Shown: positions 11,642 to 53,656, counted from the first letter of the stretch. The stretch is 64,000 nucleotides of DNA from Actinomycetota bacterium (GCA_030017835.1 JASEGU010000004.1:6445-70444), one strand, 5' to 3'. Notes: generated by a model not told the origin, from the letters alone. Program-made: numbers and translations.

Positions 11642-12078
11642 AGCTAAGATACCTCATATTGACCGTAATGCCTTGGATAGAGCTTAGGGGAGCCATACCT
11701 TTGGCGATCAAAGATGGGGAGTATCTGGCCGTACCCTTCATAATGGCCATAAACATCCTCATCTTCTTCCCGACCTACTATGGCTTGGAGTTGATGAGGC
11801 GCTGGGTCAAGGAGGGCTCTTGGCTAAGCCGGCGGCTCAAAGTGGTCGAAGAAAAATCGGCGCCGCTGGTGAGGAGGTACGGTCTTTTGGGGCTTGCGGT
11901 CTTTGTCATGATTCCGCTTCCCGGAACCGGAGCCTATTCCGGCACGGCGGCTGCCTGGCTTCTTGGCTTTAGGAAGAGGACGGCCTTCTTTGCGGTGGCC
12001 CTCGGGGTGATCCTGGCGGGAATCATCGTCTCGCTAATAAGCCTCTCTGTAAGGAGCGGGTTATTTGGGCTCCTCTAG
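11638..12078 (+). CDS. small multidrug-export-like membrane protein (COG2426 / Sm_multidrug_ex family)
   Basis: 146 aa with 4 TM helices and the motifs IELRGAIP and PLPGTGAYSG. Its start overlaps the ATPase stop (ATGA). Confidence 0.5.
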   Translation: MKLRYLILTVMPWIELRGAIPLAIKDGEYLAVPFIMAINILIFFPTYYGLELMRRWVKEGSWLSRRLKVVEEKSAPLVRRYGLLGLAVFVMIPLPGTGAYSGTAAAWLLGFRKRTAFFAVALGVILAGIIVSLISLSVRSGLFGLL

Positions 12079-13358: not shown

Positions 13359-15515
13359 TTATCTCTCTTCTTCTACAATAATATATAAGAGAGCGACAAT
13401 TGCAAACATTATGGTTGCCGCGGCAGCGGCCGCTCCGGTGTCGTTGAAGATGAAGGCGGCCAGCGCCCCAGATGAGGTGCCAATAAAGCCCGCGACCAGG
13501 CTGGGGCGCTCCCGCTTAAGCTTATCGAAGAAGCCGACCGGGCGGAAGAAGAGCATCGGGGAGACGAGCAGGGTGGCAAGGAGTATCCTCGTCCAGACCG
13601 TATATTTCATGCCCCGGTAATTCATGGCTATCTTCCGTCTTGTGATTTCCAACAGCTCCTTTACCCCGCCCTCGTAGATCATCATGACGCTCCGCCCCGC
13701 ATGGCTGGTCGCCCCGCCCCGAAATATGTCTATGGCCAAAAAGATGAGAAGGGCTCCGAGGGCGGCTCCGGCGACGTAGAGAAAGTGCCTCCTTTTGAGC
13801 GAGCCCTGAAACAGGACTATCAGAGTGATGGCGAAACCGACCGAGGCGGCTATGGTTCCTCCGACGTTGGCTCCCAGGGCGGGATGTCCTATCGCCACCA
13901 CCACGGCCGCAAACATCAGGCCGGCCAGAAGATGGTGCGCTCTCAATCGAAGCTTCTTTACATCGAGCAAGGATGTTATGCCGATTATGCTCGCCCCGAT
14001 CAGAATGCCCATATATTCGTTTCCGATGCCGTAAAATCTGGCTCCGATGTTGGGACAGTAGCCCAAGATTGAGGTCCTTATGAGGTTCCAGCCGGTCATC
14101 ATGTCAAGGGTCAGGATGACCACGGTCAAGAGGCAGATCAGGACTATCGGCATAAGTTGCGAGCCCTTGAAATAGCGGGCGCACATGACGATGGCGCCCG
14201 CTATGGCTGATACGAGGAGAATCGGCAGAATCATGTGACCGTAGTCGATGGGGGCGAATATTTCGAAGGCCACGGGTATGCTGAGCAGCCAAAGAAAGAT
14301 CACCTGGATGGCCCCCACCAGTCTCTTTGGGATATTTTTGAAGAATGAAACAAGGGCGGCCAGGATGACCATTATCGAAACTAAGGTAACATAGCCTTTG
14401 AGCAGCGGGACTCTGGCTATCGCTTTATTCTCATACCTGGTGCTCATCCGCCCCATGTAAGATGGGTCAACCCTTCTGTCCAAGAACCTTATTGGCCTGC
14501 CCGTCATCTCCTCTCCCTTTTCGGCGCCGAGGATGCTCAAGATGGTCGGGGCGATATCGGTGCTGTCGACTATCCCAGGCCACCTGGTCGTATCCGAGAT
14601 CAAAAGGCCTCCATCGACGCTAGCTCCGATCATAATTGCGGGAGCCAGAAAGTTGCCCCGCTCCATCGCCTCAGGCGGGTTGGAGGGAGCGAGGAGCATT
14701 AGGGTGGTATCATCACCCAAGATGCTCAAAACCTCGCCAAGATAGCGGTCGACCGCCTCCATCTTGAATTTGCGCCTCTTGATGATGGCCTCTTCCGTAT
14801 ATAGATTATTTCTGCTCTCAAGACGAGTCGTATCCCCGAGCTCGACGACCAGAAGGTCGGATGTGGCAAGCAGGTCCTTGGTCTTTGTAAAGAGCGCGGC
14901 GTAGTCGGTTATCGTTCCCGTCTCTTTAGAGATAGTGTTGGTCGCGGCCGAGACGTCGCCAAGGTAAGTCAAGCCCAGCTCGTCCATGGTTATCAATGAG
15001 GCCTCCCTGTGAGGCTCGCCCACGTTATCGCCGTTTCCAATGAGGGCCGCCTTGAGGCCACCCTCCTTTAGGGCTTTGCCCAGAGAGCCCGGCAGGTTGC
15101 TTCTGGGGATCGTCTTCGAGGTGGCTATGATGTTGGCGATCGAAAGGTTGGCTATGCTGCCCAAGGGAGGCTCGATGCCGGTCCTCTGGAGAAAGATGTC
15201 GGACGCAAGGATTCCGCTTGGATGGACCTCGTCCCGGTTGAAAGATTCGCCAGCCGTCCCGCCCGTCTTGGTCTTTGCCCCGACTCCAATGCAGAGATAG
15301 CCGTCATAAGGGTTTGGACCCGCCTGGGTCCTGACGTTCATGAGGCCTGCGGCGCCCTCTTTGGCAATTTTTGATAGGTTCGGCGCCGCGGCCTCGGCAA
15401 GCTCGCTCGCCCCAAGACCGTTGGTGATGACCATGATAACTTTTGGTTTGGCTTCTGCGGCCGCCTTGGGCGCGCCTCCCAGGGCGGCCGCAAGTAAAGA
15501 GATGAGGGCGAACAA
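13359..15515 (-). CDS. large membrane protein with an N-terminal exported alkaline-phosphatase-superfamily-like domain and a C-terminal polytopic (about 10 TM) domain
   Basis: Signal peptide, then a domain ending with the sulfatase/LtaS-like motif DIAPTILSILG, then many TM helices. Family assignment is tentative. Confidence 0.5.
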   Translation of the reverse strand: MFALISLLAAALGGAPKAAAEAKPKVIMVITNGLGASELAEAAAPNLSKIAKEGAAGLMNVRTQAGPNPYDGYLCIGVGAKTKTGGTAGESFNRDEVHPSGILASDIFLQRTGIEPPLGSIANLSIANIIATSKTIPRSNLPGSLGKALKEGGLKAALIGNGDNVGEPHREASLITMDELGLTYLGDVSAATNTISKETGTITDYAALFTKTKDLLATSDLLVVELGDTTRLESRNNLYTEEAIIKRRKFKMEAVDRYLGEVLSILGDDTTLMLLAPSNPPEAMERGNFLAPAIMIGASVDGGLLISDTTRWPGIVDSTDIAPTILSILGAEKGEEMTGRPIRFLDRRVDPSYMGRMSTRYENKAIARVPLLKGYVTLVSIMVILAALVSFFKNIPKRLVGAIQVIFLWLLSIPVAFEIFAPIDYGHMILPILLVSAIAGAIVMCARYFKGSQLMPIVLICLLTVVILTLDMMTGWNLIRTSILGYCPNIGARFYGIGNEYMGILIGASIIGITSLLDVKKLRLRAHHLLAGLMFAAVVVAIGHPALGANVGGTIAASVGFAITLIVLFQGSLKRRHFLYVAGAALGALLIFLAIDIFRGGATSHAGRSVMMIYEGGVKELLEITRRKIAMNYRGMKYTVWTRILLATLLVSPMLFFRPVGFFDKLKRERPSLVAGFIGTSSGALAAFIFNDTGAAAAAATIMFAIVALLYIIVEEER

Positions 15516-17294: not shown

Positions 17295-18035
17295 TCACCC
17301 TTTATCGGCCCCGCCTAGGGGCCTCTTCTTTGGAATCCCAGCCCTTCTGGGGTATTGCTTGGGCGTGGGAACCAGTTTTTTTATTATCACGATTGTTCTT
17401 TTGGCTTCAACGAAAGGAACGTCTATCTCTCTTGCGGAGACCATGGCGCCCCCAAGCTCGTTTGCTCCCCTCTCTGCCGCGTCGATCTCGCTCAAGCTCA
17501 AGTTTGCTTTCTGGGCCAAGAGCGAACCGCCGATCTTAAGGATGGGTAAGGCATATTCCGCCAGAACAGAGAGGGGCGCAACCGCTCTTGCTAGAGCCAG
17601 GTCGAACTGCTCTCTGTTGTCCCTATTTATACCATAATCCTCGGCTCGGCAACAGACCGCCTGGATCCCATCAAGGCCCATTCTCTCTATCAAGCCCTGT
17701 AAAAAATCAACCTTCTTCTTGATGGAGTCCAAAAGAATCGTGTTTAAGTGGGGAAAGGCTATCTTTAGGGGCAGGCCCGGAAGGCCTGCCCCGCTTCCGA
17801 TATCTATCACCCTCTCTGTGCAAGAGAAGTCGTGGACGAGCTTAAGGCTCAAGGAGTCAAGGAAGTGCTTGCTGGCGATCTCCTCCTCTTCGGTTATGGC
17901 GGTAAGGGCGGCCCTCTTGTTCCCTGCTACGATCTCGTCCAAAAAGATCTCAAAAAGCTTCATCTTTTCCTCATCAAGCTCGATCTTTAGGGCGCCAGCC
18001 CCCTTGACGAGAAGATCTCGGCTCTTCGCTCTCAT
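17295..18035 (-). CDS. rsmG: 16S rRNA (guanine527-N7)-methyltransferase RsmG/GidB
   Basis: SAM motif DIGSGAGLPGLPLKIAFP, and a position between mnmG and parA. Confidence 0.85.
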   Translation of the reverse strand: MRAKSRDLLVKGAGALKIELDEEKMKLFEIFLDEIVAGNKRAALTAITEEEEIASKHFLDSLSLKLVHDFSCTERVIDIGSGAGLPGLPLKIAFPHLNTILLDSIKKKVDFLQGLIERMGLDGIQAVCCRAEDYGINRDNREQFDLALARAVAPLSVLAEYALPILKIGGSLLAQKANLSLSEIDAAERGANELGGAMVSAREIDVPFVEAKRTIVIIKKLVPTPKQYPRRAGIPKKRPLGGADKG

Positions 18036-19924
18036 TCGTCCGCACTCCGCTTTTTCCGCTCCAAGTGGATCAACAGCGCCAAGGCATCGGCCGGGGTGAC
18101 TCCGGGAACCCGGGTGGCCTGCCCCAGCGAACGGGGGCCGACCCTGGCCAGGCCCTCGCGCGCCCTAAAGGAGAGGCCGTGAAGCTCGTGGAAGTCTGTC
18201 CCCTCGGGGATGAGCCTCTCTTCCATCTTCTTTTGGCGCTTTACCTGTTCCATCTGACGCTTGGTGTAGCCTTCGTATTTAATCTCCGTCTCGACAATTT
18301 TCTTGGCATCTGCCGAGACCTTCTCTCCTTTACGAAAATCTTCGTAAAGTTTAGGAAAGGATGCTTCGAGCTCATCGTGGCAGACTTCGGGTCGGCGCAG
18401 GATCTCGGCCAGGCTGGTCGGCCTCTTTATCCCACTGCTTTTCAGGGCTCTCAATGCCTCGTTGTTGGCCTGGCTTGGAACGAGCCTTGTGCTTTTAAGG
18501 CCGGCTGTCTCGACAAGAATGGCCCTCCTCTTCCTCTCCACCAGCTCCATCCTCTCTTTGGAGATGAGGCCAAGCTCGTGTCCTATCTTCGATAGCCTAA
18601 GGTCTGCGTTGTCTCCTCGCAAGATGAGCCGATGTTCGGCCCTTGAGGTATACATGCGATAGGGCTCGGCATGCTCCTTGGTCACCAGATCGTCTACGAG
18701 AACTCCCATGTAGGCCTGGGAGCGCTCCAGGACCAAGGGGGGCTTCCCTTTGACCTTTAGGGCGGCATTTATTCCGGCCAGAAGACCTAGGGCAGCCGCC
18801 TCTTCATATCCGGTCGTGCCGACTACCTGGCCGGCCATAAAAAGGCCGTCTACCAGCTTGGTCTCCAGATTCGGCTTGAGCTGGCTCGCGATGACGTAGT
18901 CGTATTCGACGGCATATCCCGGTCTAACCATCTTTGCCCTTTCGAGGCCGGGGGTGGATCTGACCACCTCCAGCTGCGCCTTGGCCGGAAGTGCCGTGGT
19001 GAGCCCTTGCAAGTAGACCTCGTTGGTCTCCAGGCCCTCGGGCTCGATAAAGACCGGGTGGCGGGCCTTTTCCGGAAAATTTACAACCTTTCTGTCGATC
19101 GAGGGACAGTTTCTCGGGCCGCGACTCTCTATAATTCCGGTCTTAATCGGAGAGAGATGCATCAGACCAAGAAGTTTCTTGTGCGTCGCCTCGTTGGTAT
19201 AGGTGAGGAAGCAAGGAATGTTGGGCGTCTTCCTGGGCTTGGAGGAGCCGGAGAAGCTCAAGGGGCCCGGGTCGCCGGGCTGAATCTCCATTTTCGAATA
19301 GTCGACGCTCCTTCCATCCAGCCTTGGAGGGGTGGCCGTCTGAAGCCTTCCCAGCTCAAAGCCAAGCTCCTTGAGGCTTCCGGAAAGCGCTCTTGCAGGC
19401 GCTTCGCCCATCCTGCCCCCCGCTATCTCAGTGTCGCCGATGACCAGGCGGCCATTTAGAAATGTGCCCGTCGTCAGGATGACCACGGAAGACCGATGGC
19501 CCCGCCCGTCCTCCAGTTCGACCCCAAGGATTCCCGTCCCTTCCTTTTTGATTCCGCTTACCGTTCCCGGAATTCGAGAGATACCTGCCCGCAAAAGGAG
19601 CTTTGCCATCTTGGCACCATATTTCCGTTTGTCTATCTGAGCTCTCAGTGCCTGGACGGCAGGGCCCTTGCTCCTATTTAACATCTTGATCTGGATCAGC
19701 GTCTCATCGGCGAGCCTAGCCATCCACCCACCCAGAGCATCAATCTCTTTTACCAGATGTCCCTTGCCGATCCCTCCGATAGATGGGTTGCAGGGCATCA
19801 GGGCCACCCTCTCCGCATCCATGGTTATTATGGCAACCCGCAGACCCATCCCAGCTGCAGCCAAAGCTGCCTCAGAGCCAGCGTGACCTGCTCCAATGAC
19901 GATGCAATCGAAGGGTTTTTCCAT
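18032..19924 (-). CDS. mnmG: tRNA uridine 5-carboxymethylaminomethyl modification enzyme MnmG/GidA
   Basis: 630 aa. FAD motif FDCIVIGAGHAGSEAALAAA. Full-length MnmG architecture. Confidence 0.9.
   Translation of the reverse strand: MEKPFDCIVIGAGHAGSEAALAAAGMGLRVAIITMDAERVALMPCNPSIGGIGKGHLVKEIDALGGWMARLADETLIQIKMLNRSKGPAVQALRAQIDKRKYGAKMAKLLLRAGISRIPGTVSGIKKEGTGILGVELEDGRGHRSSVVILTTGTFLNGRLVIGDTEIAGGRMGEAPARALSGSLKELGFELGRLQTATPPRLDGRSVDYSKMEIQPGDPGPLSFSGSSKPRKTPNIPCFLTYTNEATHKKLLGLMHLSPIKTGIIESRGPRNCPSIDRKVVNFPEKARHPVFIEPEGLETNEVYLQGLTTALPAKAQLEVVRSTPGLERAKMVRPGYAVEYDYVIASQLKPNLETKLVDGLFMAGQVVGTTGYEEAAALGLLAGINAALKVKGKPPLVLERSQAYMGVLVDDLVTKEHAEPYRMYTSRAEHRLILRGDNADLRLSKIGHELGLISKERMELVERKRRAILVETAGLKSTRLVPSQANNEALRALKSSGIKRPTSLAEILRRPEVCHDELEASFPKLYEDFRKGEKVSADAKKIVETEIKYEGYTKRQMEQVKRQKKMEERLIPEGTDFHELHGLSFRAREGLARVGPRSLGQATRVPGVTPADALALLIHLERKKRSADE
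18527..18905. repeat. 379-bp direct repeat copy 1 (internal to mnmG)
   Basis: Near-identical to 19931..20309 (378/379 by eye; the single difference is tatacatgcg versus tatgcatgcg). Confidence 0.85.
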
Positions 19925-20941
19925 CTAGCCCCTCTTCCTCTCCACCAGCTCCATCCTCTCTTTGGAGATGAGGCCAAGCTCGTGTCCTATCTTCGATAGC
20001 CTAAGGTCTGCGTTGTCTCCTCGCAAGATGAGCCGATGTTCGGCCCTTGAGGTATGCATGCGATAGGGCTCGGCATGCTCCTTGGTCACCAGATCGTCTA
20101 CGAGAACTCCCATGTAGGCCTGGGAGCGCTCCAGGACCAAGGGGGGCTTCCCTTTGACCTTTAGGGCGGCATTTATTCCGGCCAGAAGACCTAGGGCAGC
20201 CGCCTCTTCATATCCGGTCGTGCCGACTACCTGGCCGGCCATAAAAAGGCCGTCTACCAGCTTGGTCTCCAGATTCGGCTTGAGCTGGCTCGCGATGACG
20301 TAGTCGTATGCCCTGCTTGTTGATGTTGAGATTTTGTCTTTAGGGGGCGCCCCTTGCGACCTTGCGGGGCAAAGCCGAAAACCAAATTCTGTCAGGTCTT
20401 CTTTAAGATTTTTTTTGCGTCTGGACATGGTAAGAAAGGTGAAGCCGAGAGAGGCTTTTGGGGCTTTATGGCTTGGAGGGAGCCCCCCCGTCGCAAGGAG
20501 GACGGTCTTGGCGCCAATGTTTCCCCCGAACATGGTTTTGACTCCAGCGGCTCTTCCCTCCTTAACGATCAGCCCATCGACCAGATCCTGCCAAAAGGAG
20601 ATATTGGAAACCTCTTCTAGCGCCGTCTTTGTGTCGACTAAATGCTCTCGTTTCAAGGAGCGAGCCTCCCTGGCAACCTCATCTTGGCCGTCCCCGCCTT
20701 TAAAAGGAAAGGATCCGCTGACAAGCTCGATCTCTCGAAGCAAGGCCCCCCTTGCGGCCTCGCTAAAAGAGGGAGGATCTTCTCGGCGGATATTGTTGTC
20801 TAGCGAGAAAGAGACCATCAAAACCCTCATGCCCATGCGGGCTGCTGCCCAAGCTGCGCGGGCCCCACACGGGCTTGCCCCAACCACTATCAAATCATAT
20901 CTTTCTATCTTTTGCTCCTTTGATTCAACGCTATTTGCCAA
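19925..20941 (-). CDS. chimeric/degenerate MnmG-like FAD protein (possible pseudogene)
   Basis: The N-terminal ~210 aa are a highly diverged GidA-like FAD domain ([23 protein letters not shown]…[10 protein letters not shown]). The C-terminal 128 aa are identical to MnmG residues encoded by the 379-bp repeat. The ORF stop abuts the mnmG start. Confidence 0.5.
19931..20309. repeat. 379-bp direct repeat copy 2 (forms the 3' part of the chimeric ORF)
   Basis: Same as 18527..18905. Flanks diverge immediately outside the repeat. Confidence 0.85.
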
Positions 20942-25652: not shown

Positions 25653-27002
25653 TTGCAAGCAGACATCGCGGAGGCCTGGAAAGAGGCCGTAAAACAATTA
25701 AAGGCTGGGATGAGTGCTCCCATATCGAAGGCTTGGTTCGATAACACCTCGGCGGTTGATATGTCAAATGGTGTCGTCTTTATATCGGCTCCCAATAATT
25801 TCATCAAAGAGTGGCTCGAGACAAGACACGTCGACTCAATAAAAGAGACCCTGTCGGCTATCTTAAACGAGGATGTGCTCGTAAGCTTCATTTCTAAAGA
25901 GTTAGAAGGGGTCGCCACGTCGCCCAGGACCAAGATTCAATCAAAACCGCCAGAGACCGAGGCGAGGGGTGGGGCCGGCCTCTTAAATTCAAAATATACC
26001 TTCGAAGCTTTCGTGATCGGAAGCAGCAACCGGTTCGCCCACGCCGCCGCATTGGCCGTGGCGGAGCTTCCTTTTAAGGCTTACAACCCGCTGTTTATCT
26101 ATGGCGGCGTGGGCCTTGGAAAGACTCACCTGCTGCAGGCTGTCGGCAACTATGTCTCCCAGCATAACCGCGAACTTAAAATTAGGTATGTTTCGACGGA
26201 GAAATTTACCAACGACTTCATCAGCTCAATTGGAGATAGGGGCAAAATCTCTGGTTTTCAAAATAAATATCGCAAAGTTGATGTGTTGATGATAGACGAC
26301 ATCCAGTTTATAGCCGGCAAGGAGGCGACCCAAGAGGAGTTCTTTCACACATTTAATAATCTATATGAAGCGAATAAGCAGATGGTTATCACTAGCGACC
26401 GCCCACCAAAGGATATCTCAACCCTAGAAGACCGCCTTCGTTCGAGGTTTGAGTGCGGCCTCATCACCGATGTCCAGCCACCTGATCTGGAGACAAAGAT
26501 AGCCATTTTAAAGAGAAAGCTTAGCGATAACGACGTCGTCTCTTTCGAGGTTTTAGAGTTCATTGCTTCCAGGGTCCACTCGAATATTAGGGAGCTTGAG
26601 GGGGCGCTGACTAGGGTTCTTGCCTTTTCCTCCTTCACAAAAACCCCGATAGATATTAAGCTCGCCGAGGAGGTTTTAAGGAATATATTCTCAAACAAAG
26701 AGAGCCGACCGATATCGATTCAGGCCATACAGAATGAGGTCTGCCGCTTTTTTGGGATTTCAAAAACCGAGCTCGTCGGAAGCCGGCGGAGTCAGCCGAT
26801 TGTTTATCCTAGACAGATTGCTATGTACCTATCGAGAGAATTAACTGATATGTCTCTTCCAAAGATCGGCGAGGAGTTTGGTGGAAGAGATCACACAACG
26901 GTGATGCACGCCAATTTAAAGATAGAAAGGCTAATAAGCGAAAGGCGGGAGATATATAACCAGATTCAGGAGTTAATTAATAAGATAAAACAGAGATCTT
27001 AA
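25653..27002 (+). CDS. dnaA: chromosomal replication initiator DnaA
   Basis: AAA+ Walker A GGVGLGKTHLL, plus domain IV with the basic-loop/HTH C-terminus. Confidence 0.95.
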   Translation: MQADIAEAWKEAVKQLKAGMSAPISKAWFDNTSAVDMSNGVVFISAPNNFIKEWLETRHVDSIKETLSAILNEDVLVSFISKELEGVATSPRTKIQSKPPETEARGGAGLLNSKYTFEAFVIGSSNRFAHAAALAVAELPFKAYNPLFIYGGVGLGKTHLLQAVGNYVSQHNRELKIRYVSTEKFTNDFISSIGDRGKISGFQNKYRKVDVLMIDDIQFIAGKEATQEEFFHTFNNLYEANKQMVITSDRPPKDISTLEDRLRSRFECGLITDVQPPDLETKIAILKRKLSDNDVVSFEVLEFIASRVHSNIRELEGALTRVLAFSSFTKTPIDIKLAEEVLRNIFSNKESRPISIQAIQNEVCRFFGISKTELVGSRRSQPIVYPRQIAMYLSRELTDMSLPKIGEEFGGRDHTTVMHANLKIERLISERREIYNQIQELINKIKQRS

Positions 27003-27215
27003 TAACTCTAAGCCTGTTGATTATTTGTGTATCAATTATTAACAATTTTGGGATTTAAAAATTTCACAACTTTTATTAATAGTTCTAAATAATTTATTAG
27101 ATGTTTGTGAACAATTAAGAGACGGGGCAAGCTCTGTAATTAACAATTCAACAAGCTCTAATATTATTACTATTTTTATTTATTAATATATCAATCAATA
27201 CTAAGAGGTGTTTAA
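27003..27215. promoter_or_regulatory. oriC-type AT-rich dnaA-dnaN intergenic region (DNA-unwinding element plus degenerate DnaA boxes)
   Basis: About 25% GC over 213 bp, against about 58% for the surrounding window. Degenerate boxes TGTGTATCA (27026-34) and TGTGAACAA (27106-14). There are runs of TTATT/ATTAA. Confidence 0.55.
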
Positions 27216-28319
27216 ATGTTTATCACTTGTGAGCAGAAAGAGTTATTGGAAGAGATTCAAGTAGTTCAAAAGGCCGCATCCATCCGGAGCACCCTCCCCA
27301 TCTTAAGCGGCATACTTTTTAGCGCTTCGGCCGGCAGGCTACATCTTACCACCACCAACTTGGAATTATCTATACATTCCAGCCTGCCGGCCGAAGTCAA
27401 AGAAGAGGGATCTTTAGTCGTTCAGGCTCGCCTAATTGGAGAGATCATTAAAAACCTTTCTGATTTAAAAATAGAAATGTTTTTAGATTCCTCCACAAAC
27501 CAACTAAAATTAACCAATTCCAAGTCGGTCTTCAATATAAAAATCCTTTCGCCAGAGGACTTTCCAAAGTTTCCCACGGCCGAGTTGGACAATCAGTTCA
27601 CCATCAAGTCGGAAGACCTCTCTAACGCTATAAGACAGGCCATAAAAGCCGCCTCTATTGATGAGACTCGGCCCATCTTGACCGGCGTCCTTATTGTAGT
27701 AAATAAAAATAGGTTAAAGATGGTTGCCACCGACAGCTATCGTTTAGCCATAAAAGAGATCCCAATAATCAACAAAGAAGACGTCAAGATAAAGGCCATC
27801 ATTCCCTCAAGAACGCTCGGGGAGCTTCTTAAGATTGTCTCTGATGGACGGAGCGAAGTAGTGGTGGGAGAGATGGGAAATCAACTCGCCTTTAAGATTA
27901 AAAATACCACCCTGATAACTCGGCTAATAGAGGGGCAGTATCCAAACTATCAACAGATCCTCCCAGAAAAGTATGAGATGAATTTTGTGGTGGATCGAGA
28001 AAATCTTCTTGGCGCCGTAAAGAGGATATCCTTATTTACCCAAAGCAACTCTTTAATAAAAATGGCGGCAAGAGATGGCTCTCTTGAGCTCAGCGCCTCT
28101 GCTGCTGAACTTGGTGAGGCCAAAGAGGCAGTAGATTATAGGGGGACGGGAGACGGATTGACAGTGGCCTTTAATAGTCAATATCTGATCGACGGCCTTA
28201 GTAGTATTCAGGGAGAGGAGGTATCCTTTGATATGATAGACAACATGAAACCGACCTCAATCACAGGAGACAAGAAGGATGACTTCCTCCACCTCTTAAT
28301 GCCGGTTAGAACCGGATGA
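27216..28319 (+). CDS. dnaN: DNA polymerase III beta sliding clamp
   Basis: 367 aa, three-domain clamp, canonical position after dnaA. Confidence 0.9.
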   Translation: MFITCEQKELLEEIQVVQKAASIRSTLPILSGILFSASAGRLHLTTTNLELSIHSSLPAEVKEEGSLVVQARLIGEIIKNLSDLKIEMFLDSSTNQLKLTNSKSVFNIKILSPEDFPKFPTAELDNQFTIKSEDLSNAIRQAIKAASIDETRPILTGVLIVVNKNRLKMVATDSYRLAIKEIPIINKEDVKIKAIIPSRTLGELLKIVSDGRSEVVVGEMGNQLAFKIKNTTLITRLIEGQYPNYQQILPEKYEMNFVVDRENLLGAVKRISLFTQSNSLIKMAARDGSLELSASAAELGEAKEAVDYRGTGDGLTVAFNSQYLIDGLSSIQGEEVSFDMIDNMKPTSITGDKKDDFLHLLMPVRTG

Positions 28320-28355
28320 TAAAATATATTATTATATTAAAAAATAGGAAAAAGA

Positions 28356-29468
28356 TTGCATCTTTTTAGAGCAGAGCTCCTCAGCTTTAGAGGTCACAAA
28401 GAGGCTTCATTCGAGCCCATCCCTGGCATAAATGTGATAATCGGTGATAATGGCTGCGGCAAAAGCAACCCGCTAGAGGGAATCTTCGTCCTTATGAGAG
28501 GGAGGTCCTTTGGGACGAGCCAAGACGATGCTTTGATTCAACTCGGAGAGAGGGCGTCGGTAATTAGGGGGAGGTTTAAGGGAGAGAAGAGAGACTCTAA
28601 AATCGAAATGGGCATAAATGCTGACGCCGGAAAAGAGATTAGACTGAACGGCTTAAGGCTGGAGAAATTAAAAGATCTTAAGAGTTCTTTTGGAATAGTC
28701 ACCCTCTCTCCTGAGGATCTTAAGCTCGTCAAAGGTGGCCCCGAAGAGAAGAGGGCGCTCATGGATGAGGCTGGGGGGCCCTTGGCCCAAAATATGACCA
28801 TGCGAGGATGAGCCCTTTTAAGGTTTTAAAGCAACGAAACAACCTCTTAAAACAGATCAAATTTGGGAGAGCAGGCCCGCTCAAGCCCTGAGATATGGAA
28901 CGAGAGACCGATCATAACCGGAAAGAGGTTGATGGATGAGAGAAGAGAGACGGTTCAGCCTTTGAGCGAAGTCTGTCAAGATGTCTTCAATGAGATTTAC
29001 GGCCAGAGGCGCAGCCTGAGCCTAATGTGTTCGAACGAAATCTTTAAAAAAGACTCTCCGTCGAGGAGCCTCTCAAAGACCTCTTGGAAAAAGGGGGGGG
29101 CCGATGAGATTGAAAGGGGAACAAGCCTCATCGGCCCCCATAGAGACGACCCAACGATCCTTCTTGGGGGAAAAGAGGGGCCCAGGCCATATGTCTCCCA
29201 GGGCGAACAGAGGGCCATCAGCTTGGCCCTGAGGCTGGCCCACTATGAGCTCTTGTGTAGAGATGAACACGGGATGAACCTGTTTCTAATGGACGACGCC
29301 ATGTCGGAGATGGACGAGAAGAGAAGAGACAACCTCTTAAATTTCATCTCCGGGCTCAAACAGACCACAATCACCAGCACAAATCTCTACTACTTCAAGG
29401 ACGAGCATCTTAAAATGACGAACCTGATTGAAATGGGAGAAGGCGAGAGGAAGAGCAAGGCTTGTTGA
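28356..29468 (+). pseudogene. recF: recF disrupted by two compensating frameshifts (N-terminus and C-terminus in frame 0, middle ~100 nt in another frame)
   Basis: N-terminal Walker A GDNGCGKSN in frame 0. The middle segment …LGPKYDHARMSPFKVLKQRNNLLKQ… is in another frame. The C-terminal signature LFLMDDAMSEMD is back in frame 0. Frame 0 has three in-frame stops over 28809-28850. Shift sites are a G6 run at 28773-28778 and about 28855-28870. Confidence 0.7.
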
Positions 29469-29908
29469 GGGACATCAAGGATGTTTTACGAGACCTAATA
29501 TCCGACCTCAACATGGGCAAGCTGATGGAGGAGGCCAGGATCGTAAGGGGCTGGAGAGATATAGTCGGCGAGCACGTCGCCGAGAATAGCTCCCCAATCT
29601 CGCTTGTGCGCGGCACCCTCTTGATAGGAGCCTACAATTCAGCCTGGTCGAATCAGCTCAGCATGATGAGGACAGGCCTCGTGGAGGAGATAAACAGCCA
29701 CCTTGGCAGAGAGGTCGTAAAAGAGATAAGGTTCAAGCTGATCGAAAAGGCGAAGGAGGAGAGCGATGAGGCCGCCCCCGAAGAACGCACGAGTCTTTTT
29801 GGCGAGGGAGAGAAAAAGAAGATTCTTGGCGATCTCTTGTTAAATGTCGAGGATGCTGAGGTGAGAGAGAGCCTAAAAAGGGCCATTTTCCTAGATGATC
29901 AAAAATGA
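29462..29908 (+). CDS. DUF721 (DciA-like) protein
   Basis: Position between recF and gyrB, as Rv0004/YaaB. …RIVRGWRDIVGEHVAENSSPISLVRGTLLIGAYNSAWSNQL… matches the DUF721 pattern. Confidence 0.65.
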   Translation: MLRDIKDVLRDLISDLNMGKLMEEARIVRGWRDIVGEHVAENSSPISLVRGTLLIGAYNSAWSNQLSMMRTGLVEEINSHLGREVVKEIRFKLIEKAKEESDEAAPEERTSLFGEGEKKKILGDLLLNVEDAEVRESLKRAIFLDDQK

Positions 29909-29912
29909 TTAA

Positions 29913-31850
<1,938 letters not shown>

Positions 31851-31861: not shown

Positions 31862-34327
31862 ATGTCATCACGAGCGCAGCTTTTTGGAAACAAAACAGAA
31901 CCGGTCTACATCGAAGAGGAGATGAAGCGCTCATACATCGATTACGCCATGAGCGTGATCGCCGGGCGTGCCCTGCCCGATGTGAGAGACGGCCTTAAGC
32001 CGGTCCACCGCCGCATCCTCTACGGCATGTACGATCTTGGCATGGTTCCGGGCAAGCCCTATATGAAGTGCGCCCGCATCGTAGGAGAGGTTTTGGGAAA
32101 GTATCACCCCCACGGCGACAGCGCCGTCTATGACGCTCTGGTTAGGATGGCCCAAGACTTCTCCTTGAGATATCAGCTCATCGATGGCCACGGAAACTTC
32201 GGCTCGGTCGACGGCGACAGCCCGGCCGCCATGCGCTATACCGAGGCTCGCCTCTCCAAGCCGGCCATGGAAATGCTGAAAGACATCAACAAAGAGACGG
32301 TCGATTTCGCCCCCAACTTCGATGAGACCCTGAGCGAACCGACGGTTCTGCCCTCGAGGCTTCCCAACCTCCTTATCAACGGCTCCTCGGGGATAGCCGT
32401 CGGCATGGCGACCAACATTCCGCCTCACAACATGGCCGAGGTCATCGATGCCGTCGTCATGCTGATCGATAAACCAGAGGCCGGCATAGAGGATCTGATG
32501 ACTCAGATTAAGGGACCAGACTTTCCTACCGGGGGACTCATCGTCGGCACGGCCGGCACAAAAGAGGCCTATCGGACCGGGCGCGGCAACGTGATTATGA
32601 AATCCAAAACCCACATCGAAGAGACGAAATCGGGAAAGCACAGGATCATCGTGACCGAGATCCCGTTTCAGGTCAACAAGGCGCGTCTGACCGAGAAGAT
32701 TGCCGAGCTCGCCAGGGAGAAAAAGATAACCGAGATAAGCGACCTGCGCGACGAGTCCGACAGGAGCGGCATGCGTCTGGTCATCGAGCTGAAGAGGGAG
32801 GCCGTTCCCAAGGTCGCCTTAAACAAGCTATTCAAATATACCCAACTCAAAACGACCTTCAATATCATAACGCTGGCCCTGGTCGACACGGCTCCCAAGG
32901 TCCTCAACTTGCTCGAGGCCCTGAAGTACTACCTCGACCACCAGAGAGAGATCATCGTTAGAAGGACGAGGTTTGATCTGGCCAAGGCTGAAGCCAGAGC
33001 CCACATTTTGGAAGGGCTTTTGGTTGCCCTGAACAATTTGGACGAAATGATAAAGCTTATCAAGTCGTCAAAGACGGTCGATATCGCCCGCTCAAGCATC
33101 ATGGAGCGCTTCTCTTTGAGCGAGACTCAGGCCCAGGCCATTTTGGATATGCGCCTACAGAAGCTGACCGGCCTTGAGCGCGAGAAGATAGAGACCGAAC
33201 ACAAAGAACTCCTTGAGGCGATCGCCGAGCTCAAAGCCATCTTGGCCGACGAGAAGAGAGTCTACGCCATCATCAAGAGGGAAATCCTTGAGATCAAGAC
33301 GAACTATCTCGACGAGAGGCGCACCAAGATAGTTCCGGCCGAGGATGACTTGGAGGAGGAGGACCTCATTGCCGAAGAGCAGATGATCGTCTCGATAACC
33401 AATTCGGGCTACGTCAAGCGCTTGCCCGTCGAGACCTACCGCCAGCAGCAACGGGGCGGCCGCGGGGTCATCGGCATGAATCTCAAGGACGGGGACGTGG
33501 TCGAGCACATGTTCGTCTCCTCAACCCACGATTACGTCCTCTTCTTCTCCAACGAGGGCAAGGTCTACCGGGTCAAGGTTCACGAGCTCCCCTTGGGCAG
33601 CCGCACATCCAAGGGGCAGGCCATCGTCAACATCCTTCCCTTTGGGCCGGGCGAAAAGATAGCGGCCGTCATCGCGGCCAAGGGTTTTGAGCAGAGCAAA
33701 TATATCATAATGGCGACCAAGCTCGGTCTGGTCAAAAAGACCGAGCTCAAAGAGTACGACACCGCAAGGCGTGGCGGGATAATTGGTTTGAACCTGAAAG
33801 AAAATGACGAGTTAATAGGGGTCAAGCTGGTAGATAAGGATGACAGAATAATCCTCGTCTCCGAGCTGGGTCAATCGATTTGTTTCGACGAGAGCGACGT
33901 TCGTCCGATGGGCCGGGCCGCCTCGGGGGTCAAGGGGATCACCCTAAATCTGGCCGACGTGGTCCTTGCGATGGACGTCGTAAGAAACCTCGGCGAGCTC
34001 TTCGTCGTCACCAATAACGGTTATGGCAAGCGGACACCGATCACCAAATACCCGGCCCAGGCTCGGGGCGGAAAGGGCGTTCGCACGATCAAAAAGTTTG
34101 AGAGCGGGGAAAGGCTGGCCGGGGCCAAGGTGGTAAGCGATGAGCACGAGATCATGCTCATCTCGGCCGAAGGCTTGGTGATCAGGACGGCGGCCAAAGG
34201 GATAAGCCGGATGGGCCGGAGCACCCGCGGGGTTAGGGTCATCAACCTTAAAGAGAACGATGTGGTGAGCACGGTCGCCAAAGTGGCCAGCGCCAGGGCC
34301 TCAGAGGAAAACGGGGATGGAGTCTGA
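31862..34327 (+). CDS. gyrA: DNA gyrase subunit A
   Basis: Active-site Tyr region, QRDR-like [14 protein letters not shown], and C-terminal beta-pinwheel repeats. Confidence 0.95.
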
Positions 34328-34760
34328 AAAAAAGGAGAGCCGCCCCAGGCCCTTTGAGGTTATAGAACATACGGCTGATGTCGGGATAATCGGCTACGGC
34401 GGGGACCTAAAAGAGGTTTTTGAAAACACCGCCATCGGCATGTTCAGTCTAATTACAGAACTTAACGCCGTTTCAAAAGATCTTGAGATTCAAGTGGAGG
34501 TCGAAGCGGAAGATGTTGAGGGACTGATGGTGGCCTGGCTTAACGAATTGATCTATCTCTTCGAGACCAAGGGGGTTCTATTTAAAGAGTTCGACATCCT
34601 GGAGCTCAGCGAAGAGGGGCTAAGGGCCGTGGCCCGCGGCGAGGAGTTAAATCCTATCAAACATGAGATCAAAACGGAGATAAAAGCAGCCACCTATCAT
34701 ATGCTCAAAGTGGAGAGCGAAAAAGAACGCTTAAAGAGCCGAGTCATATTTGACGTTTAG
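34317..34760 (+). CDS. archease (RtcB activator/chaperone)
   Basis: [16 protein letters not shown] … ATYHMLKV … VIFDV is the archease signature and C-terminus. Confidence 0.85.
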
Positions 34761-34850
34761 CCCAGTAAAAAAAGGGAGGCGGTTGCAATCAAGGGCATCG
34801 AAAAGATCGGCGAGTATTGCTACAGAATCCCCAAAGAGACCCGAAGCGAC

Positions 34851-36230
34851 ATGTTGGTCGACGGGATAATATTCTCCGACGAAAGCCTTTTTGCAACGGA
34901 CGAATCGTCTAAGGCGCTGGAGCAGGTGGCTAACGTCGCCACCCTTCCCGGAATAGTCAAAGCTTCCTTTGCTATGCCCGATATCCATTGGGGATATGGC
35001 TTTCCCATTGGCGGGGTGGCCGCTGTGCGAGAAGAGGACGGCTTCATTTCGCCAGGCGGGGTTGGCTTCGACATCAGCTGCGGGGTCAGGCTCCTGAAGA
35101 CGTCCATGATTGCAAGCGAGATAGAGCCCGATCTAAAATCCCTTATGCACGAGCTCTCCCGAAACATCCCCAAAGGGCTTGGGCGCAAAGGAAAGATCTC
35201 GCTTAACCAGAGCGAGCTCGAAGAGGTGCTGGACAAGGGGATCGAATGGGCTCGAAAGCGGGGATTTGCCAGTAAAGACGAGACGAATCGCATCGAGGAG
35301 AGCGGGCGGCTGGCCGGTGCAGATCCTGGCGCGGTCAGCAAGAGGGCCTTCGATCGAGGCGCTAGTCAGTTAGGCACGCTCGGCTCGGGCAACCACTTTT
35401 TAGAGGTGCAGGAGGTGACCGAGATTTTTGATTCGGCCAGCGCCAAGGCTTTTGGAATATTTAAAGGTCAGCTTATGGTCATGATCCACTCCGGCTCAAG
35501 GGGCCTTGGTCATCAGGTCTGCACCGACTACGTCAAGGTGATGGACGGGGTGGTCAAAAGAATGGGCCTTACCCTGCCAGACCGCCAGCTCGCCTCCGCC
35601 CCCATCGCTTCACCTGAGGGACGCAATTACTATGGAGCAATGGCGGCTGCGGCCAATTATGCCATGGTCAACAGGGGGCTTCTGGCCTTCTGGGCCAAAG
35701 AGTCCTTCGAGAGCACCTTCTCGGCGACCGCCAAAGAGATGGGCATCGAGCTTCTCTACGACGTCTCTCACAATTTGGCCAAATTCGAAGAGCATGTGGT
35801 GGACGGCAAGCAGATGAAGCTATGTGTTCACCGAAAGGGGGCCACCAGGGCCTTTGGGCCCAGCCTCTTGCCCAAAGATTCTCCCTATAAAGAGATCGGT
35901 CAGCCGGTCATGATCCCTGGGGACATGGGGCGAGCCTCCTACGTATTGCTTGGGACGGAGGAGTCAGAAGAGAGGGCCTTCAGTTCGACCTGTCACGGGG
36001 CGGGGCGCGTCATGAGCCGCACCCAGGCCAAGAAGAGCATCGGGCTGGACCAGTTGAGAAAGGACCTCGAAGAGAGGGGAGTCATCGTCTTGGCCGGGCA
36101 GAAATCAACCCTGGCCGAAGAGGCTCCGGGCGCCTATAAAGACGTCGATAGGGTGACTCTGGTTTGTGAAGGTGCCGGCCTCTCTAGGCGAGTGGCCAAG
36201 CTGCGGCCACTTGGCGTGATAAAGGGCTAG
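34851..36230 (+). CDS. rtcB: RNA-splicing ligase RtcB (3'-phosphate/5'-OH RNA ligase)
   Basis: …LPGIVKASFAMPDIHWGYGFPIGGVAAV… plus the conserved His/Cys metal ligands. The first canonical start (ATG 34851) removes about 21 RtcB-homologous residues that are encoded in-frame from 34788. See findings. Confidence 0.8.
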   Translation: MLVDGIIFSDESLFATDESSKALEQVANVATLPGIVKASFAMPDIHWGYGFPIGGVAAVREEDGFISPGGVGFDISCGVRLLKTSMIASEIEPDLKSLMHELSRNIPKGLGRKGKISLNQSELEEVLDKGIEWARKRGFASKDETNRIEESGRLAGADPGAVSKRAFDRGASQLGTLGSGNHFLEVQEVTEIFDSASAKAFGIFKGQLMVMIHSGSRGLGHQVCTDYVKVMDGVVKRMGLTLPDRQLASAPIASPEGRNYYGAMAAAANYAMVNRGLLAFWAKESFESTFSATAKEMGIELLYDVSHNLAKFEEHVVDGKQMKLCVHRKGATRAFGPSLLPKDSPYKEIGQPVMIPGDMGRASYVLLGTEESEERAFSSTCHGAGRVMSRTQAKKSIGLDQLRKDLEERGVIVLAGQKSTLAEEAPGAYKDVDRVTLVCEGAGLSRRVAKLRPLGVIKG

Positions 36231-36332: not shown

Positions 36333-36409
<77 letters not shown>

Positions 36410-36510
36410 TTTGAGAGAAGAGGCTATAACGCAAAAGGCGCGCAGAGCATATTTGGCGCCTTTGTTAATGGAGTCTCTTTGGGCCTTCTCTTAAGGCCGA
36501 TTGGCGAGTT

Positions 36511-38588
<2,078 letters not shown>

Positions 38589-42188: not shown

Positions 42189-42623
42189 TCACTCCAAAAA
42201 TTCAAAGAGCGTCCGGCCGAGCTGAATCTTGTCGCCGACCTTCAAGGGACGAGCCCCCCAGAGCCGCTCGCCGTTTAAGAAGGTTCCGTTGGCGCTCTCC
42301 AAGTCATCCAAATAGAACGCATCGTCCTGGCCGTATATCAGAGCGTGTTCCTTGGAGACGAAGTCGTCCATGATCCTAACATCACTGGAGTCATCCCTTC
42401 CGATCGAGAGCTCGCCGCTTATCTCAAACATCCGGCCCGCTTCCAAGAACTGGCTGTCCAAGACGACGAGCCGCGGCTCCTTGGCCGGCCCCTCGGCCAT
42501 CTTCGTTCCAAGGGGCTGGCCTTCGTCAAGATCGCTCCCGATCCTCCTAATGAGCGAAAAGAGGAACAGATAGAGGAGGATCAGAAAAATGATCTTTAAT
42601 GCTATCTGGATCAGACTAAACAT
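42189..42623 (-). CDS. fhaB: FHA-domain protein with N-terminal TM helix (FhaB/FipA-like)
   Basis: C-terminal FHA fold (…GRDDSSDVRIMDDFVSKEHALI…NGTFLNG…). Confidence 0.8.
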   Translation of the reverse strand: MFSLIQIALKIIFLILLYLFLFSLIRRIGSDLDEGQPLGTKMAEGPAKEPRLVVLDSQFLEAGRMFEISGELSIGRDDSSDVRIMDDFVSKEHALIYGQDDAFYLDDLESANGTFLNGERLWGARPLKVGDKIQLGRTLFEFLE

Positions 42624-43320
42624 CGCTGATGTTAAACTCCAATCTGGTCTTTCCGACCGTTATGACATCCCCCTGTTTTAACTGGGCTGATTCCACCACG
42701 CAGTCATTGAGCAGGGTGCCATTGGTGCTGCCAAGATCTTTTAGGATATACCTTCGGCCGTCTTTTCTTATCTCGGCATGAAGGCGAGAGGCGCTCTGGT
42801 CCATAACGTTGATATCGCAGCCGGAAAGGCGTCCTATCGTAGTCGTCTCCTTTTCGAGAGGAAAGACGCTATCCTTCGAGCCCCGGCTGCCTCTCTGCAA
42901 AAGGCGGGCCTTTGGGTCTTTCTGCTCGAGCTCAAAGGCTTCAATGGCTATTGGGTCGACTTCGAGCGTCTCCACCCTCATCTCGCCCAAAGATAGAGAG
43001 ACGTCTTTAGTCAGCTCAACCTGGGGCTTGGCCAGAAGACGGCAGCCCTCCTTTTTGGCCGTTTCCTCCACAAAGTTCTTTAGTTCGGCCAAAAAGGTCT
43101 CTCTCATCGGTCCCGTAGCCTCGAAATCATCGGCGCTCAAGGCGACCAAAAAGGAGCTTGGGGCGATGAACCCGCTCAAGGAGAGCCGCTTCTTTCTCTC
43201 CATCTCCCTAGCCAGGCCCTTCGCTATCTCGACCGGATGGATGCCTGACTTAAATTGCTTGGCAAAAAAGCCCTCCACCAGGCCCTCCAGTCTTTTTTCC
43301 AGCTCGCCGAGCAGGCTCAA
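42616..43320 (-). CDS. fhaA: FHA-domain protein with N-terminal DUF3662 (FhaA-like)
   Basis: MSLLGELEKRLEGLVEGFFAKQFKSGIHPVEIAKGL… is DUF3662, and the C-terminus is an FHA domain. Confidence 0.8.
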   Translation of the reverse strand: MSLLGELEKRLEGLVEGFFAKQFKSGIHPVEIAKGLAREMERKKRLSLSGFIAPSSFLVALSADDFEATGPMRETFLAELKNFVEETAKKEGCRLLAKPQVELTKDVSLSLGEMRVETLEVDPIAIEAFELEQKDPKARLLQRGSRGSKDSVFPLEKETTTIGRLSGCDINVMDQSASRLHAEIRKDGRRYILKDLGSTNGTLLNDCVVESAQLKQGDVITVGKTRLEFNISDV

Positions 43321-43330
43321 TCCCCCCCCC

Positions 43331-45076
43331 TCATCTCTTCGGCCCCCAGGTTATCTTTATGTAGTGAAAGATGGCGATGAATATTATAAGCATTATAAAG
43401 GAAAAAGAGACCCTTTGCAGAGCCTTGCCCAAATCTAGGGGAGGGCTTGCGTGAAGCGTCGGGAGCCACATCTCTCCGAGGAGGAGGACGACGCCCCCAA
43501 GTCCGGCCGCGATGAGATCGGCCAAGAAGCGTTTGTTTTTGGCGAGCAAGGCCACCAGAAAGGCGGCGGCCGCCCAGATGAGGGGCATCAGGAGAAGCGC
43601 CGGATCCTCGATGAATGCTTCAAGCAGGATAAATAGGGTTGAGAAGGGGTTTGTGGTAGCTTTTATCTTTAGGGCTAACTGGGCTGAGCCGGCAAATAGG
43701 TCGTATGCCTCAAGCGCGAAGGCGCCGGCCGCGCCGCCTATGGCAGCCGGGATCGGATCCATGATGACTCCGATTGCAAGGGGAAAGAGATGCGAGAGGC
43801 CGAGTCGGCCAAGGAGCGGTGCAGCAAGGAAAGAGGCGCTGGCCTCGGGAAAGCTTCTTGCAAAGTTCAATATATAGAGGGAGGCTAGGGCTAAAAAGAT
43901 CAAAGAGAGGGAGAAGGAGAAGGCGCCTATGGCCAGCGCGGCGGCGAGCGCCACGGTGACCAAGCCAAGCAGAGGGGAGAAGAGGGCTACAAAGAAGGTG
44001 ACAAGGGATAGGATCGCCCCGATCTCCTCCGAAAAGAAGGAGGACCCCTTAAGGCCGAGAAAGAGGAAGCCCCCCAGAAGGGCGGCCGAAAAGAGCCTTG
44101 CCGCGACCAGGGCTCGCTTTCCCCCCATCTCTTCCAAGCCTTCTTTTATGAAAGCCAGCTCCTCGTCGAAGAGGCCGCCTTCTCCCACATACGCCCCGGC
44201 CGCCCTTGCAAAGAGGGGACTAAGCGTCCGCTTGGGCCGGCCTTTGGCCTGCAGCAGCCTTTCAAGCTTGTAGCGCAGACTCGTGACCGTCCTCTGCCTC
44301 TTGTCGGGGTTTTTATTTAAGGCTTCGGCAATCACGTGGTCCAACTCTTTTGGCACGCCGGGGACGACCCGGCTCAACGGCGGCGGCTCTATGTTGATGG
44401 TCTTGTATATGGTGGCCGCCGCCGTCTCGGCCTCAAAGGGGTTTTCGCCAGCCAGCATGGTATAGATTAGGACTCCCAGAGCAAAGATGTCGGTCGCCTC
44501 ATCGACGTAATCTCCCTTAGCCTGCTCCGGAGATACGTAGCCGAGGCTTCCCAAAAGCTCCTTATCCACTGTGAGGCGAGGCGCTTTCTTAAGGCGGGCT
44601 ATCCCGAAATCCATGACCTTGATCCGTCCGTCAGCAAGGAGCATTATGTTGTCGGGCTTGATATCCCTATGGATGACCTCGTTCTGGTGGGCATACTCTA
44701 AAGCCAGCGCCACCTGAGATGCTACGGCGACCGCCTCTTCGGGAAAGAGGGCCCCTTGCGTCTCAAGGATAAAGGTTAAAGTGAGCCCGTCTATGTATTC
44801 CATAATCAGATAAAAATTATCATCATCCTCGACGAACTCATATAGGGTCACGATATTTGGATGTTTCAAGAGAGCTGTCGTGTTGATCTCGCGCATCGTT
44901 CTAAGGTCGCTTTTGCCACCTTTTGCCACCTCTTTTATGGCCACCTCTCGCTCCATCTTGCGATCGAACGCCCGGTAGACCCGGGCAAAGCCGCCGGCTC
45001 CCAGCTCTTCTATGACTTCAAATCTCTCCAGAAAAAGGCCTCTATCCAAAATGTCTCCAACGATGGTTTTAATCAA
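43331..45076 (-). CDS. membrane Ser/Thr protein kinase (kinase domain plus about 8 C-terminal TM helices)
   Basis: Hanks motifs GAGGFARVYRA, HRDIKPDNIM, DFGIA, followed by a polytopic hydrophobic C-terminus. It heads the fhaA-…-pknB gene string. Confidence 0.8.
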   Translation of the reverse strand: MIKTIVGDILDRGLFLERFEVIEELGAGGFARVYRAFDRKMEREVAIKEVAKGGKSDLRTMREINTTALLKHPNIVTLYEFVEDDDNFYLIMEYIDGLTLTFILETQGALFPEEAVAVASQVALALEYAHQNEVIHRDIKPDNIMLLADGRIKVMDFGIARLKKAPRLTVDKELLGSLGYVSPEQAKGDYVDEATDIFALGVLIYTMLAGENPFEAETAAATIYKTINIEPPPLSRVVPGVPKELDHVIAEALNKNPDKRQRTVTSLRYKLERLLQAKGRPKRTLSPLFARAAGAYVGEGGLFDEELAFIKEGLEEMGGKRALVAARLFSAALLGGFLFLGLKGSSFFSEEIGAILSLVTFFVALFSPLLGLVTVALAAALAIGAFSFSLSLIFLALASLYILNFARSFPEASASFLAAPLLGRLGLSHLFPLAIGVIMDPIPAAIGGAAGAFALEAYDLFAGSAQLALKIKATTNPFSTLFILLEAFIEDPALLLMPLIWAAAAFLVALLAKNKRFLADLIAAGLGGVVLLLGEMWLPTLHASPPLDLGKALQRVSFSFIMLIIFIAIFHYIKITWGPKR

Positions 45077-47578: not shown

Positions 47579-47583
47579 CCCCT

Positions 47584-53349: not shown

Positions 53350-53416
53350 TTCCGCTAGCCAAAGGGCGATAAGCCTTCTTTAGAAGGATTTTAAAGTTTG
53401 GGGGAAAGGGGTTCTT

Positions 53417-53656
53417 ATGGAGGAAGATGTCTCCAAAGAGACGATAGAGGACGCAGAGGAAGATCTCGAAACCGAGGCCCAAAAGGGTGGCTTTGACTGG
53501 AAGGGACTCCTTTTCGGGGGCTTTAGTCTGCTCAAGACCTCTACCTTCAGGTCCAAAGCCGTCATCGAAGAGGCGGGCATAATCGGAGCCTCTTTCGGCC
53601 TGGTCATTTTGTGGGCCATGAAATCGGTTCTCATAATCGGCTTTGACAAGCTTTAG
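53417..53656 (+). CDS. hypothetical small membrane protein
   Basis: 79 aa with an acidic N-terminus and two hydrophobic helices. Confidence 0.3.
   Translation: MEEDVSKETIEDAEEDLETEAQKGGFDWKGLLFGGFSLLKTSTFRSKAVIEEAGIIGASFGLVILWAMKSVLIIGFDKL

Follow-up and report, generated by a model that had tools for sequence, protein, structure and literature searches.

The recF gene at positions 28356-29468 of the window (the whole stretch of 64,000 nucleotides analysed here) is probably a genuine pseudogene that was inactivated fairly recently. An earlier note on this DNA had left open whether the gene is a pseudogene or whether the sequence contains two indel errors, and the first alternative is favoured by additional indels, radical substitutions, faster divergence, and the lack of frameshifts in the other genes that were checked. 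Relative to the intact orthologues of three relatives (L001, L002, and L003, see below), its disabling lesions are four frameshifts and three premature stop codons, accompanied by an excess of divergence and set in clean surroundings. That these lesions arose by mutation and not through faulty assembly is our inference, and the order of events proposed below has the same standing.

The gene occupies the context expected for RecF, dnaA-dnaN-recF-(dciA)-gyrB-gyrA, with the same order in L002 and L003. It is flanked by dnaN (27216-28319), which encodes a 367-aa protein matching TIGR00663 with 318 bits, and by dciA, the TTG start of which overlaps the recF stop, as it also does in L001. The dnaA, dnaN, dciA, gyrB, and gyrA genes are all full length, in agreement with the earlier description of an otherwise intact locus. 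The features of the locus are the following:

25653-27002, dnaA, upstream of recF
28356-29468, plus strand, probable recF pseudogene, from its TTG start to the original TGA stop, with TIGR00611 matches to both ORF fragments
29462-29908, plus strand, dciA, intact, a control gene outside the defect (91.4% DNA identity with L001; match to positions 2-89 of the 89 of Pfam DciA at 2.9e-20)
29946-31850, gyrB, downstream of recF
31862-34327, gyrA, downstream of recF

Directly 3' of gyrA lie archease and RtcB RNA-ligase genes (34317-36230, plus strand), as they do in L002 and L003, followed by tRNA-Ile(GAT) and tRNA-Ala(TGC) (36333-36586). The G+C content of the dnaA-dnaN-recF stretch (26000-30000) is 0.43-0.49 versus ~0.55 in the rest of the window, and its GC3 is ~0.50-0.56 versus 0.75 in gyrB and gyrA; L002 has a similar GC3 contrast (0.42 in dnaN versus 0.71 in gyrB). 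A count of DnaA boxes based on the E. coli consensus gave 6 matches versus 7.2 expected.

Translation from the recF start stops after 151 codons, at the TGA at 28809. The corresponding frame-0 ORF (28356-28811, 151 aa) covers positions 4-140 of the 339 of TIGR00611, and a second frame-0 ORF (28863-29468, 201 aa) covers positions 175-339, whereas the ~34 profile positions between them are encoded in the -1 frame only (LGPKYDHARMSPFKVLKQRNNLLKQIKF). This -1 stretch includes the conserved LKQRNxLLK motif (here LKQRNNLLKQ, at 28826-28855), which is not in the frame of the ATPase motifs. Walker A, the ABC signature SQGEQR, and the Walker B motif LFLMDD are all present but split over the two ORFs, each of which falls below the TIGR00611 cut-off when left unrepaired (113.1 and 111.0 versus 172 bits). 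We found no Shine-Dalgarno-like sequence ahead of the TTG at 28863. The earlier note had described RecF homology that leaves frame 0 at the G6 run (28773-28778), continues in another frame through VLKQRNNLLKQ, and returns to frame 0 for the C-terminal signature, with TGA, TAA, and TAA met in between, and all of this holds, the return being placed at TTTGGG (28862-28867). The gene can be divided into five segments according to the frame that carries the RecF codons, all on the plus strand:

28356-28778, plus strand, segment A, frame 0, covering RecF residues 1-141 with Walker A GDNGCGKS (28443-28466), aligned without gaps to P0001
28779-28864, plus strand, segment B, RecF codons of ancestral origin lying in the -1 frame (LGPKYDHARMSPFKVLKQRNNLLKQIKF), with ~86% identity to P0002 across the segment
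28809-28850, plus strand, the three frame-0 stops (TGA 28809, TAA 28827, and TAA 28848)
28868-29051, plus strand, segment C, frame 0, GEQARSSPEIWNERPIITGKRL...NEIFKK, carrying window-specific L>P changes
29053-29087, plus strand, segment D, ancestral codons (LSVEEPLKDLLEK) in the -1 frame, where P0002 has GASVEGAFKDLLEKVG and L001 has ASVEGAFKDLLEK
29101-29468, plus strand, segment E, frame 0, with GPHRDD (29133-29150), SQGEQR (29196-29213), LFLMDD (29280-29297), and the C-terminus

Frame 0 is also open across segment D, where it reads the unrelated DSPSRSLSKTSWKKGG over 16 codons (29052-29099), between IFKK and ADEIERG.

The relatives used for comparison came from a homologue search with the stitched RecF translation, which recovered P0001 (a 369-aa RecF, 51% identity) and P0002 (a 234-aa partial RecF, 74% identity). 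The remaining matches had at most 40% identity, the named ones nearest the top being Actinomycetota/Actinobacteria MAGs and the lower ones including Bacillota. Judging from these sequences, the host appears to belong to an uncultured Actinomycetota-like lineage known only from metagenomes. The closest relative is L001 (a Logan contig, SRR23882321), with 86% DNA identity and a single-frame recF; it is 2.5 kb long and contains P0002 at its edge as well as dciA and the first 432 gyrB codons. The short length of P0002 is a contig-edge artefact (L001 1-13), since it begins at an internal Met, and not a sign of a short gene. Because L001 starts at the MDEVGG codons, the N-terminal 140 RecF residues lie outside the close-relative comparison. 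P0001 is found on L002, L003, and L004 (GCA_964637455.1, GCA_037441605.1), where the order dnaA-dnaN-recF-dciA-gyrB-gyrA-archease-rtcB is that of the window. In all these relatives recF is uninterrupted and in a single frame, encoding 369 aa in L002 and L003. The repaired window product has 79% amino-acid identity with P0002 and 51% with P0001 within an identical neighbourhood, but the single-frame genes of the relatives contrast with the five indels of the window recF and with its proline content over the C-terminal 234 residues (10 versus 2 in L001). Exact-protein look-ups with the window dnaN, gyrA, and archease retrieved no other assembly of the same strain. Scans of genome and metagenome contigs for related loci with the repaired RecF returned pattern matches and no relative, and a search of genome and metagenome contigs for the genus-specific peptide DNLLNFISGLKQ, run as a degenerate DNA pattern, had zero matches.

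We mapped the damage by nucleotide alignment of the window (28740-29480) with L001, the two being 86.4% identical over this region. Relative to L001 recF there are five indels, namely four frameshifting 1-nt changes (-1/+1/-1/+1) and one 3-nt insertion:

28773-28778, plus strand, indel 1, 1-nt deletion at the G6 run, shifting to the -1 frame (L001 has G7 then AT, L002 has GGGGGCGAC)
28865-28867, plus strand, indel 2, 1-nt insertion giving G3 at TTTGGG (28862-28867), back to frame 0 (L001 has GG)
29046-29052, plus strand, indel 3, 1-nt deletion beside an A6 run, leaving a single G at 29052 (AAAAAAG versus AAAAAAGG in L001)
29088-29100, plus strand, indel 4, 1-nt insertion in A5G8, back to frame 0 (L001 has A4 GGTGGGGG)
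29179-29181, plus strand, in-frame 3-nt insertion five codons before SQGEQR (GKEGPRPYVSQ versus GREA-RLYASQ in L001 and GKDA-RLYASQ in L002)

The first switch thus coincides with a G6 homopolymer, as had been noted, and the frame pattern is no product of chance, the alignment with L001 placing a 1-nt deletion there (against G7) and a 1-nt insertion at the G3 (against GG). Indel 1 is more than a miscounted run length: the window sequence is GGGGGGCC and that of L001 is GGGGGGGAT, which adds a substitution to the deletion. At the first indel pair, the ancestral single-frame state is confirmed by L002 and L003. The earlier claim of two compensating frameshifts was correct for both of them but incomplete, as it lacked the second -1/+1 pair, the 3-nt insertion at 29179-29181, and the many radical substitutions; indels 3 and 4 are easily missed because frame 0 stays open between them. 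Likewise, correcting a single G and a single A/T indel, as had been suggested, does restore an open frame but not the ancestral protein. When all four frameshifts are undone, the translation is 370 aa long, close to the continuous product of ~369 aa that had been anticipated and to the 369 aa of P0001.

Since three of the four frameshifting indels touch homopolymers (G6, A6, and A5G8), the classic sites of sequencing error, and since the -1/+1/-1/+1 alternation is strict and restores the frame each time, we considered that recF is intact in the organism and that local errors of sequencing, assembly, or polishing at short homopolymers produced the four frameshifts. These errors could derive, for example, from a poorly covered or poorly polished long-read stretch, in which frame-restoring polishing may leave short out-of-frame segments. 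Such an origin is a real but clearly less probable explanation. Walker A, GPHRDD, SQGEQR, and Walker B are still recognisable, which agrees with it. By contrast, the 3-nt insertion is left unexplained, and the sequence contains no N characters and no trace of a frame-correcting tool. The confinement of the errors to a single gene also speaks against it: with indels distributed evenly over coding DNA, the other three would have a chance of ~7e-6 of all hitting this 1.1-kb gene. A window-wide problem with homopolymers can be rejected, as 56 of the 70 homopolymers of at least 6 nt, including G8, A8, and T8, lie inside uninterrupted ORFs of this 64-kb window, 90% of which is coding. Among ~45 Pfam-matched genes that were checked, in a window of ~60 genes, we detected no split or frameshifted match, and most were covered end to end. 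Three gene pairs examined as candidate split genes (47584-48408/48326-49153, 49199-49792/49716-50627, and 42616-43320/43331-45076, the last with a C9 run in between) proved to be distinct genes, each with its own complete domains.

The G tracts also raise the possibility of phase variation, in which slipped-strand mispairing at poly-G would switch recF as a contingency gene and the assembly would show its OFF variant. Tracts of 7-8 G are prone to slippage, L001 has an in-frame G7 where the window has G6, and the window has a G8 tract at indel 4. Nevertheless, we regard this as very improbable, given that no single homopolymer can act as the switch and four separate indels would all have to revert for the ON state. 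Moreover, the G tract lacks conservation, L002 and L003 having GGGGGC; two of the indels, GG>G at 29052 and G2>G3 at 28865-28867, lie off long tracts; and the accompanying radical substitutions point to permanent loss.

Even further from plausibility is the production of a functional RecF from the sequence as it stands, either as a full-length protein made by programmed recoding or as a split ATPase formed by the 151-aa and 201-aa fragments. Preservation of the ancestral codons is good throughout all segments, and ATPase heads of the SMC/Rad50 type can be rebuilt from N- and C-terminal halves supplied separately. However, a split RecF would miss the conserved LKQRN segment, would contain 16 scrambled residues, and would depend on a second ORF devoid of a ribosome-binding site. 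We reject programmed frameshifting: there is no in-frame slippery X XXY YYZ heptamer at the G6 run (the frame-0 codons are GCT GGG GGG CCC), the 90 nt downstream of the shift fold no better than shuffled sequences (z = +0.81), four events of alternating sign would be required, and the shifts are absent from the single-frame genes of L001, L002, and L003. Efficient transcriptional slippage is disfavoured by tracts that are too short and of the wrong base, and a promoter and terminator scan carried out for the recoding reading revealed nothing notable.

The quality of the repaired protein bears further on whether the gene has decayed. The 370-aa translation matches TIGR00611 positions 4-339 with 261 bits, above the equivalog cut-off of 172 that only this hand-repaired version passes, which suits an error-ridden but functional gene; the scores of the intact relatives P0001, P0003, and P0005 are 321, 328, and 317 bits, respectively, and the C-terminal 235 residues score 137 bits versus 165 for L001. 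A loss of 27-60 bits therefore remains after repair, which counts against the indel errors. Of 61 columns conserved at 85% or more, the repaired RecF deviates at 12, whereas the 119 homologues deviate at 1.9 on average (sd 1.5, max 8). It also has 28 residues found in none of the 119 homologues, eight of which are prolines, mostly in place of conserved hydrophobic residues (L, I, and Y). Segment A contributes the unusual residues L39P, R53G, and F117L, the last in a column that is F in 119 of 119 homologues. Not all deviations are signs of decay: P308, L310F, L312M, and L319M, at conserved columns, also occur in L001, so they are traits of the lineage.

The divergence from L001 reaches 13.6% at the DNA level in recF, compared with 8.6% in both dciA and gyrB (Fisher p = 2e-4), and the excess ends at the recF boundary, dciA being normal although it overlaps the recF stop. 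Polarised with L002 as outgroup, the nucleotide changes in recF are 44 on the window branch and 30 on the L001 branch (p = 0.13), with 19 versus 8 unique changes at codon position 2; the unique amino-acid changes are 16 versus 8 (p = 0.15), while the control genes are symmetric (3 versus 3 in dciA, 12 versus 11 in gyrB). The 16 changes of the window are largely radical, including three L>P, F>P, I>T, Y>C, and Y>H, whereas those of L001 are mostly conservative. The loss of profile score, the polarised radical changes, and the faster divergence cannot be produced by indel errors. This substitution excess, the eight novel prolines, and the abrupt return to normal values in dciA are thus at odds with an intact recF obscured by sequencing. 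Pairwise dN/dS with L001 is 0.26 in recF, versus 0.31 in dciA and 0.13 in gyrB. A value of 0.26 is not pseudogene-like and in itself agrees with sequencing errors, and the overall branch asymmetry is not significant on its own, so that the signs of relaxed selection on the window branch point both ways; in the pseudogene interpretation that we prefer, the low dN/dS indicates that most of the divergence arose under constraint before the loss, that the relaxed phase was short, and that inactivation was recent.

The substitutions on the recF sense strand are asymmetric. Between the window and L001 (28760-29476) there are 35 T>C versus 14 C>T differences (p = 0.004), compared with 22 versus 27 in gyrB, and polarisation by L002 assigns 20 T>C changes to the window branch versus 4 to the L001 branch. 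Tandem TT>CC or TTT>CCC events, six in total, account for 14 of 38 T>C differences from L001 (unpolarised) and are found at 28813-15, 28908-09, 29021-22, 29227-29, 29240-41, and 29299-300; a search for tandem TT>CC in the neighbouring gyrB relative to L001 found none. A GC-ward neutral spectrum may explain part of the T>C asymmetry, GC3 being 0.75 in gyrB and gyrA and ~0.5 in recF, but leaves the strand asymmetry unexplained because A>G is not similarly raised.

If the lesions are real, decay would have begun with the 1-nt deletion at the G7 tract, now G6 (28773-28778), which would have ended translation at the TGA at 28809. The resulting 151-residue fragment keeps Walker A but lacks the LKQRN segment, GPHRDD, the signature, and Walker B, which precludes a functional ABC-type ATPase. 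After the death of the gene, the +1 change at 28865-28867, the -1 change at ~29052, the +1 change in A5G8, and the codon insertion at 29179-29181 would have accumulated neutrally, along with further radical substitutions in the absence of selection, mainly sense-strand T>C changes through which Pro and Ala codons replaced those for Leu, Phe, and Val. The alternation of -1/+1/-1/+1, expected by chance in about 1 in 16 four-indel histories, keeps most of recF in frame 0 and makes it look 'compensated'. For the first pair this compensation is functionally meaningless, as frame 0 runs into three stops before indel 2. The second pair might conceivably have arisen before the gene died, as a compensated frameshift tolerated in a variable linker. 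The recF locus would still be present because its inactivation is recent, and, as the dciA start overlaps the recF stop, transcription of dciA-gyrB-gyrA probably still has to run through the dead gene, which may explain why recF has not been deleted.

RecF (TIGR00611) is an SMC/Rad50-like ABC ATPase of the RecFOR recombination-mediator pathway. The window gene shares the position, gene order, and motifs of this family but differs in lacking a continuous ORF, in having a codon inserted beside the signature, and in replacing conserved hydrophobic residues with proline. Organisms with RecOR only are reportedly known from comparative surveys such as that of Rocha et al. 2005. The probable loss of recF in the window adds one more example to a familiar class of events, its only unusual point being the non-reduced genome around it. 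Loss or pseudogenisation of recF or recFOR is amply recorded for host-restricted bacteria such as insect and other intracellular symbionts, one example being Candidatus Sodalis pierantonius (PMC4948707), and recA or recF was lost by almost every intracellular bacterium investigated (PMC2246100), while the first papers found on Deinococcus and on the Rhopalodia spheroid body deal with intact recF and report no recF pseudogene. As in host-restricted symbionts, a recombination-mediator gene is inactivated in the window genome; unlike them, the window has no signs of genome reduction, with 90% coding density, full-length neighbours among those checked, and no other pseudogene seen. That this represents a real and recent loss of recF in a non-reduced, apparently free-living, deep-branching Actinomycetota-like lineage, with decay exposing a strand-asymmetric mutational signature, is a doubtful extension. 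The T>C signature could in that case stem from translesion synthesis at gaps left unrepaired without RecF or from a strong GC-ward neutral spectrum.

The appropriate annotation of the locus is a recF pseudogene carrying five indels rather than two short 'RecF' proteins. If real, it would add a case of recF loss outside host-restricted symbionts and offer a glimpse of the neutral mutation spectrum in an uncultured lineage; if an artefact, it would reveal a local problem of assembly quality right beside the replication origin. Its importance beyond annotation is small, and inferring the absence of the RecF arm of RecFOR in the lineage calls for caution until the reads are checked.

The window has several other features of interest. 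A 338-aa GIDA/Pyr_redox_2-like ORF (19925-20941, minus strand) adjoins a full-length mnmG (18032-19924, 630 aa); it matches the GIDA profile partially, in two stretches, and may represent a TrmFO-like enzyme or a short paralogue. Two D-Ala-D-Ala ligase paralogues, both full length (2676-3668, plus strand, and 12061-13014, minus strand), are less than 10 kb apart. The longest homopolymer of the window is the C9 run at 43322-43330 (G9 on the coding strand), which fills nearly all of the 10-nt spacer between a Ser/Thr kinase gene (43331-45076, minus strand) and an FhaA gene (42616-43320, minus strand). No Pfam match at E <= 1e-5 was obtained for a 718-aa ORF (13359-15515, minus strand) or for the ORFs at 3-614, 52434-52943, 53321-53776, 57599-57979, and 59215-59739. 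A cluster on the minus strand (46391-49153) encodes a LarC-like nickel-insertion protein (46391-47578), a LarB-like AIR carboxylase (47584-48408), and a LarE/NAD-synthase-like ORF (48326-49153), and its gene content suggests synthesis of the nickel-pincer cofactor. Within the region 56767-57351 (plus strand), a tRNA-Arg(ACG) is directly upstream of a TadA-like deaminase gene (MafB19-deam/dCMP_cyt_deam_1, 56881-57351), so that the likely substrate tRNA lies beside the gene of its enzyme. Finally, two plus-strand stretches (55698-56540 and 60979-63734) encode DUF134, a dinitrogenase FeMo-cofactor-binding-like protein, a 4Fe-4S protein, and Oxidored_nitro, a nitrogenase-component-1-like oxidoreductase (62466-63734), which by their domain composition may form a nitrogenase-like (Nfl/Cfb-type) cluster.
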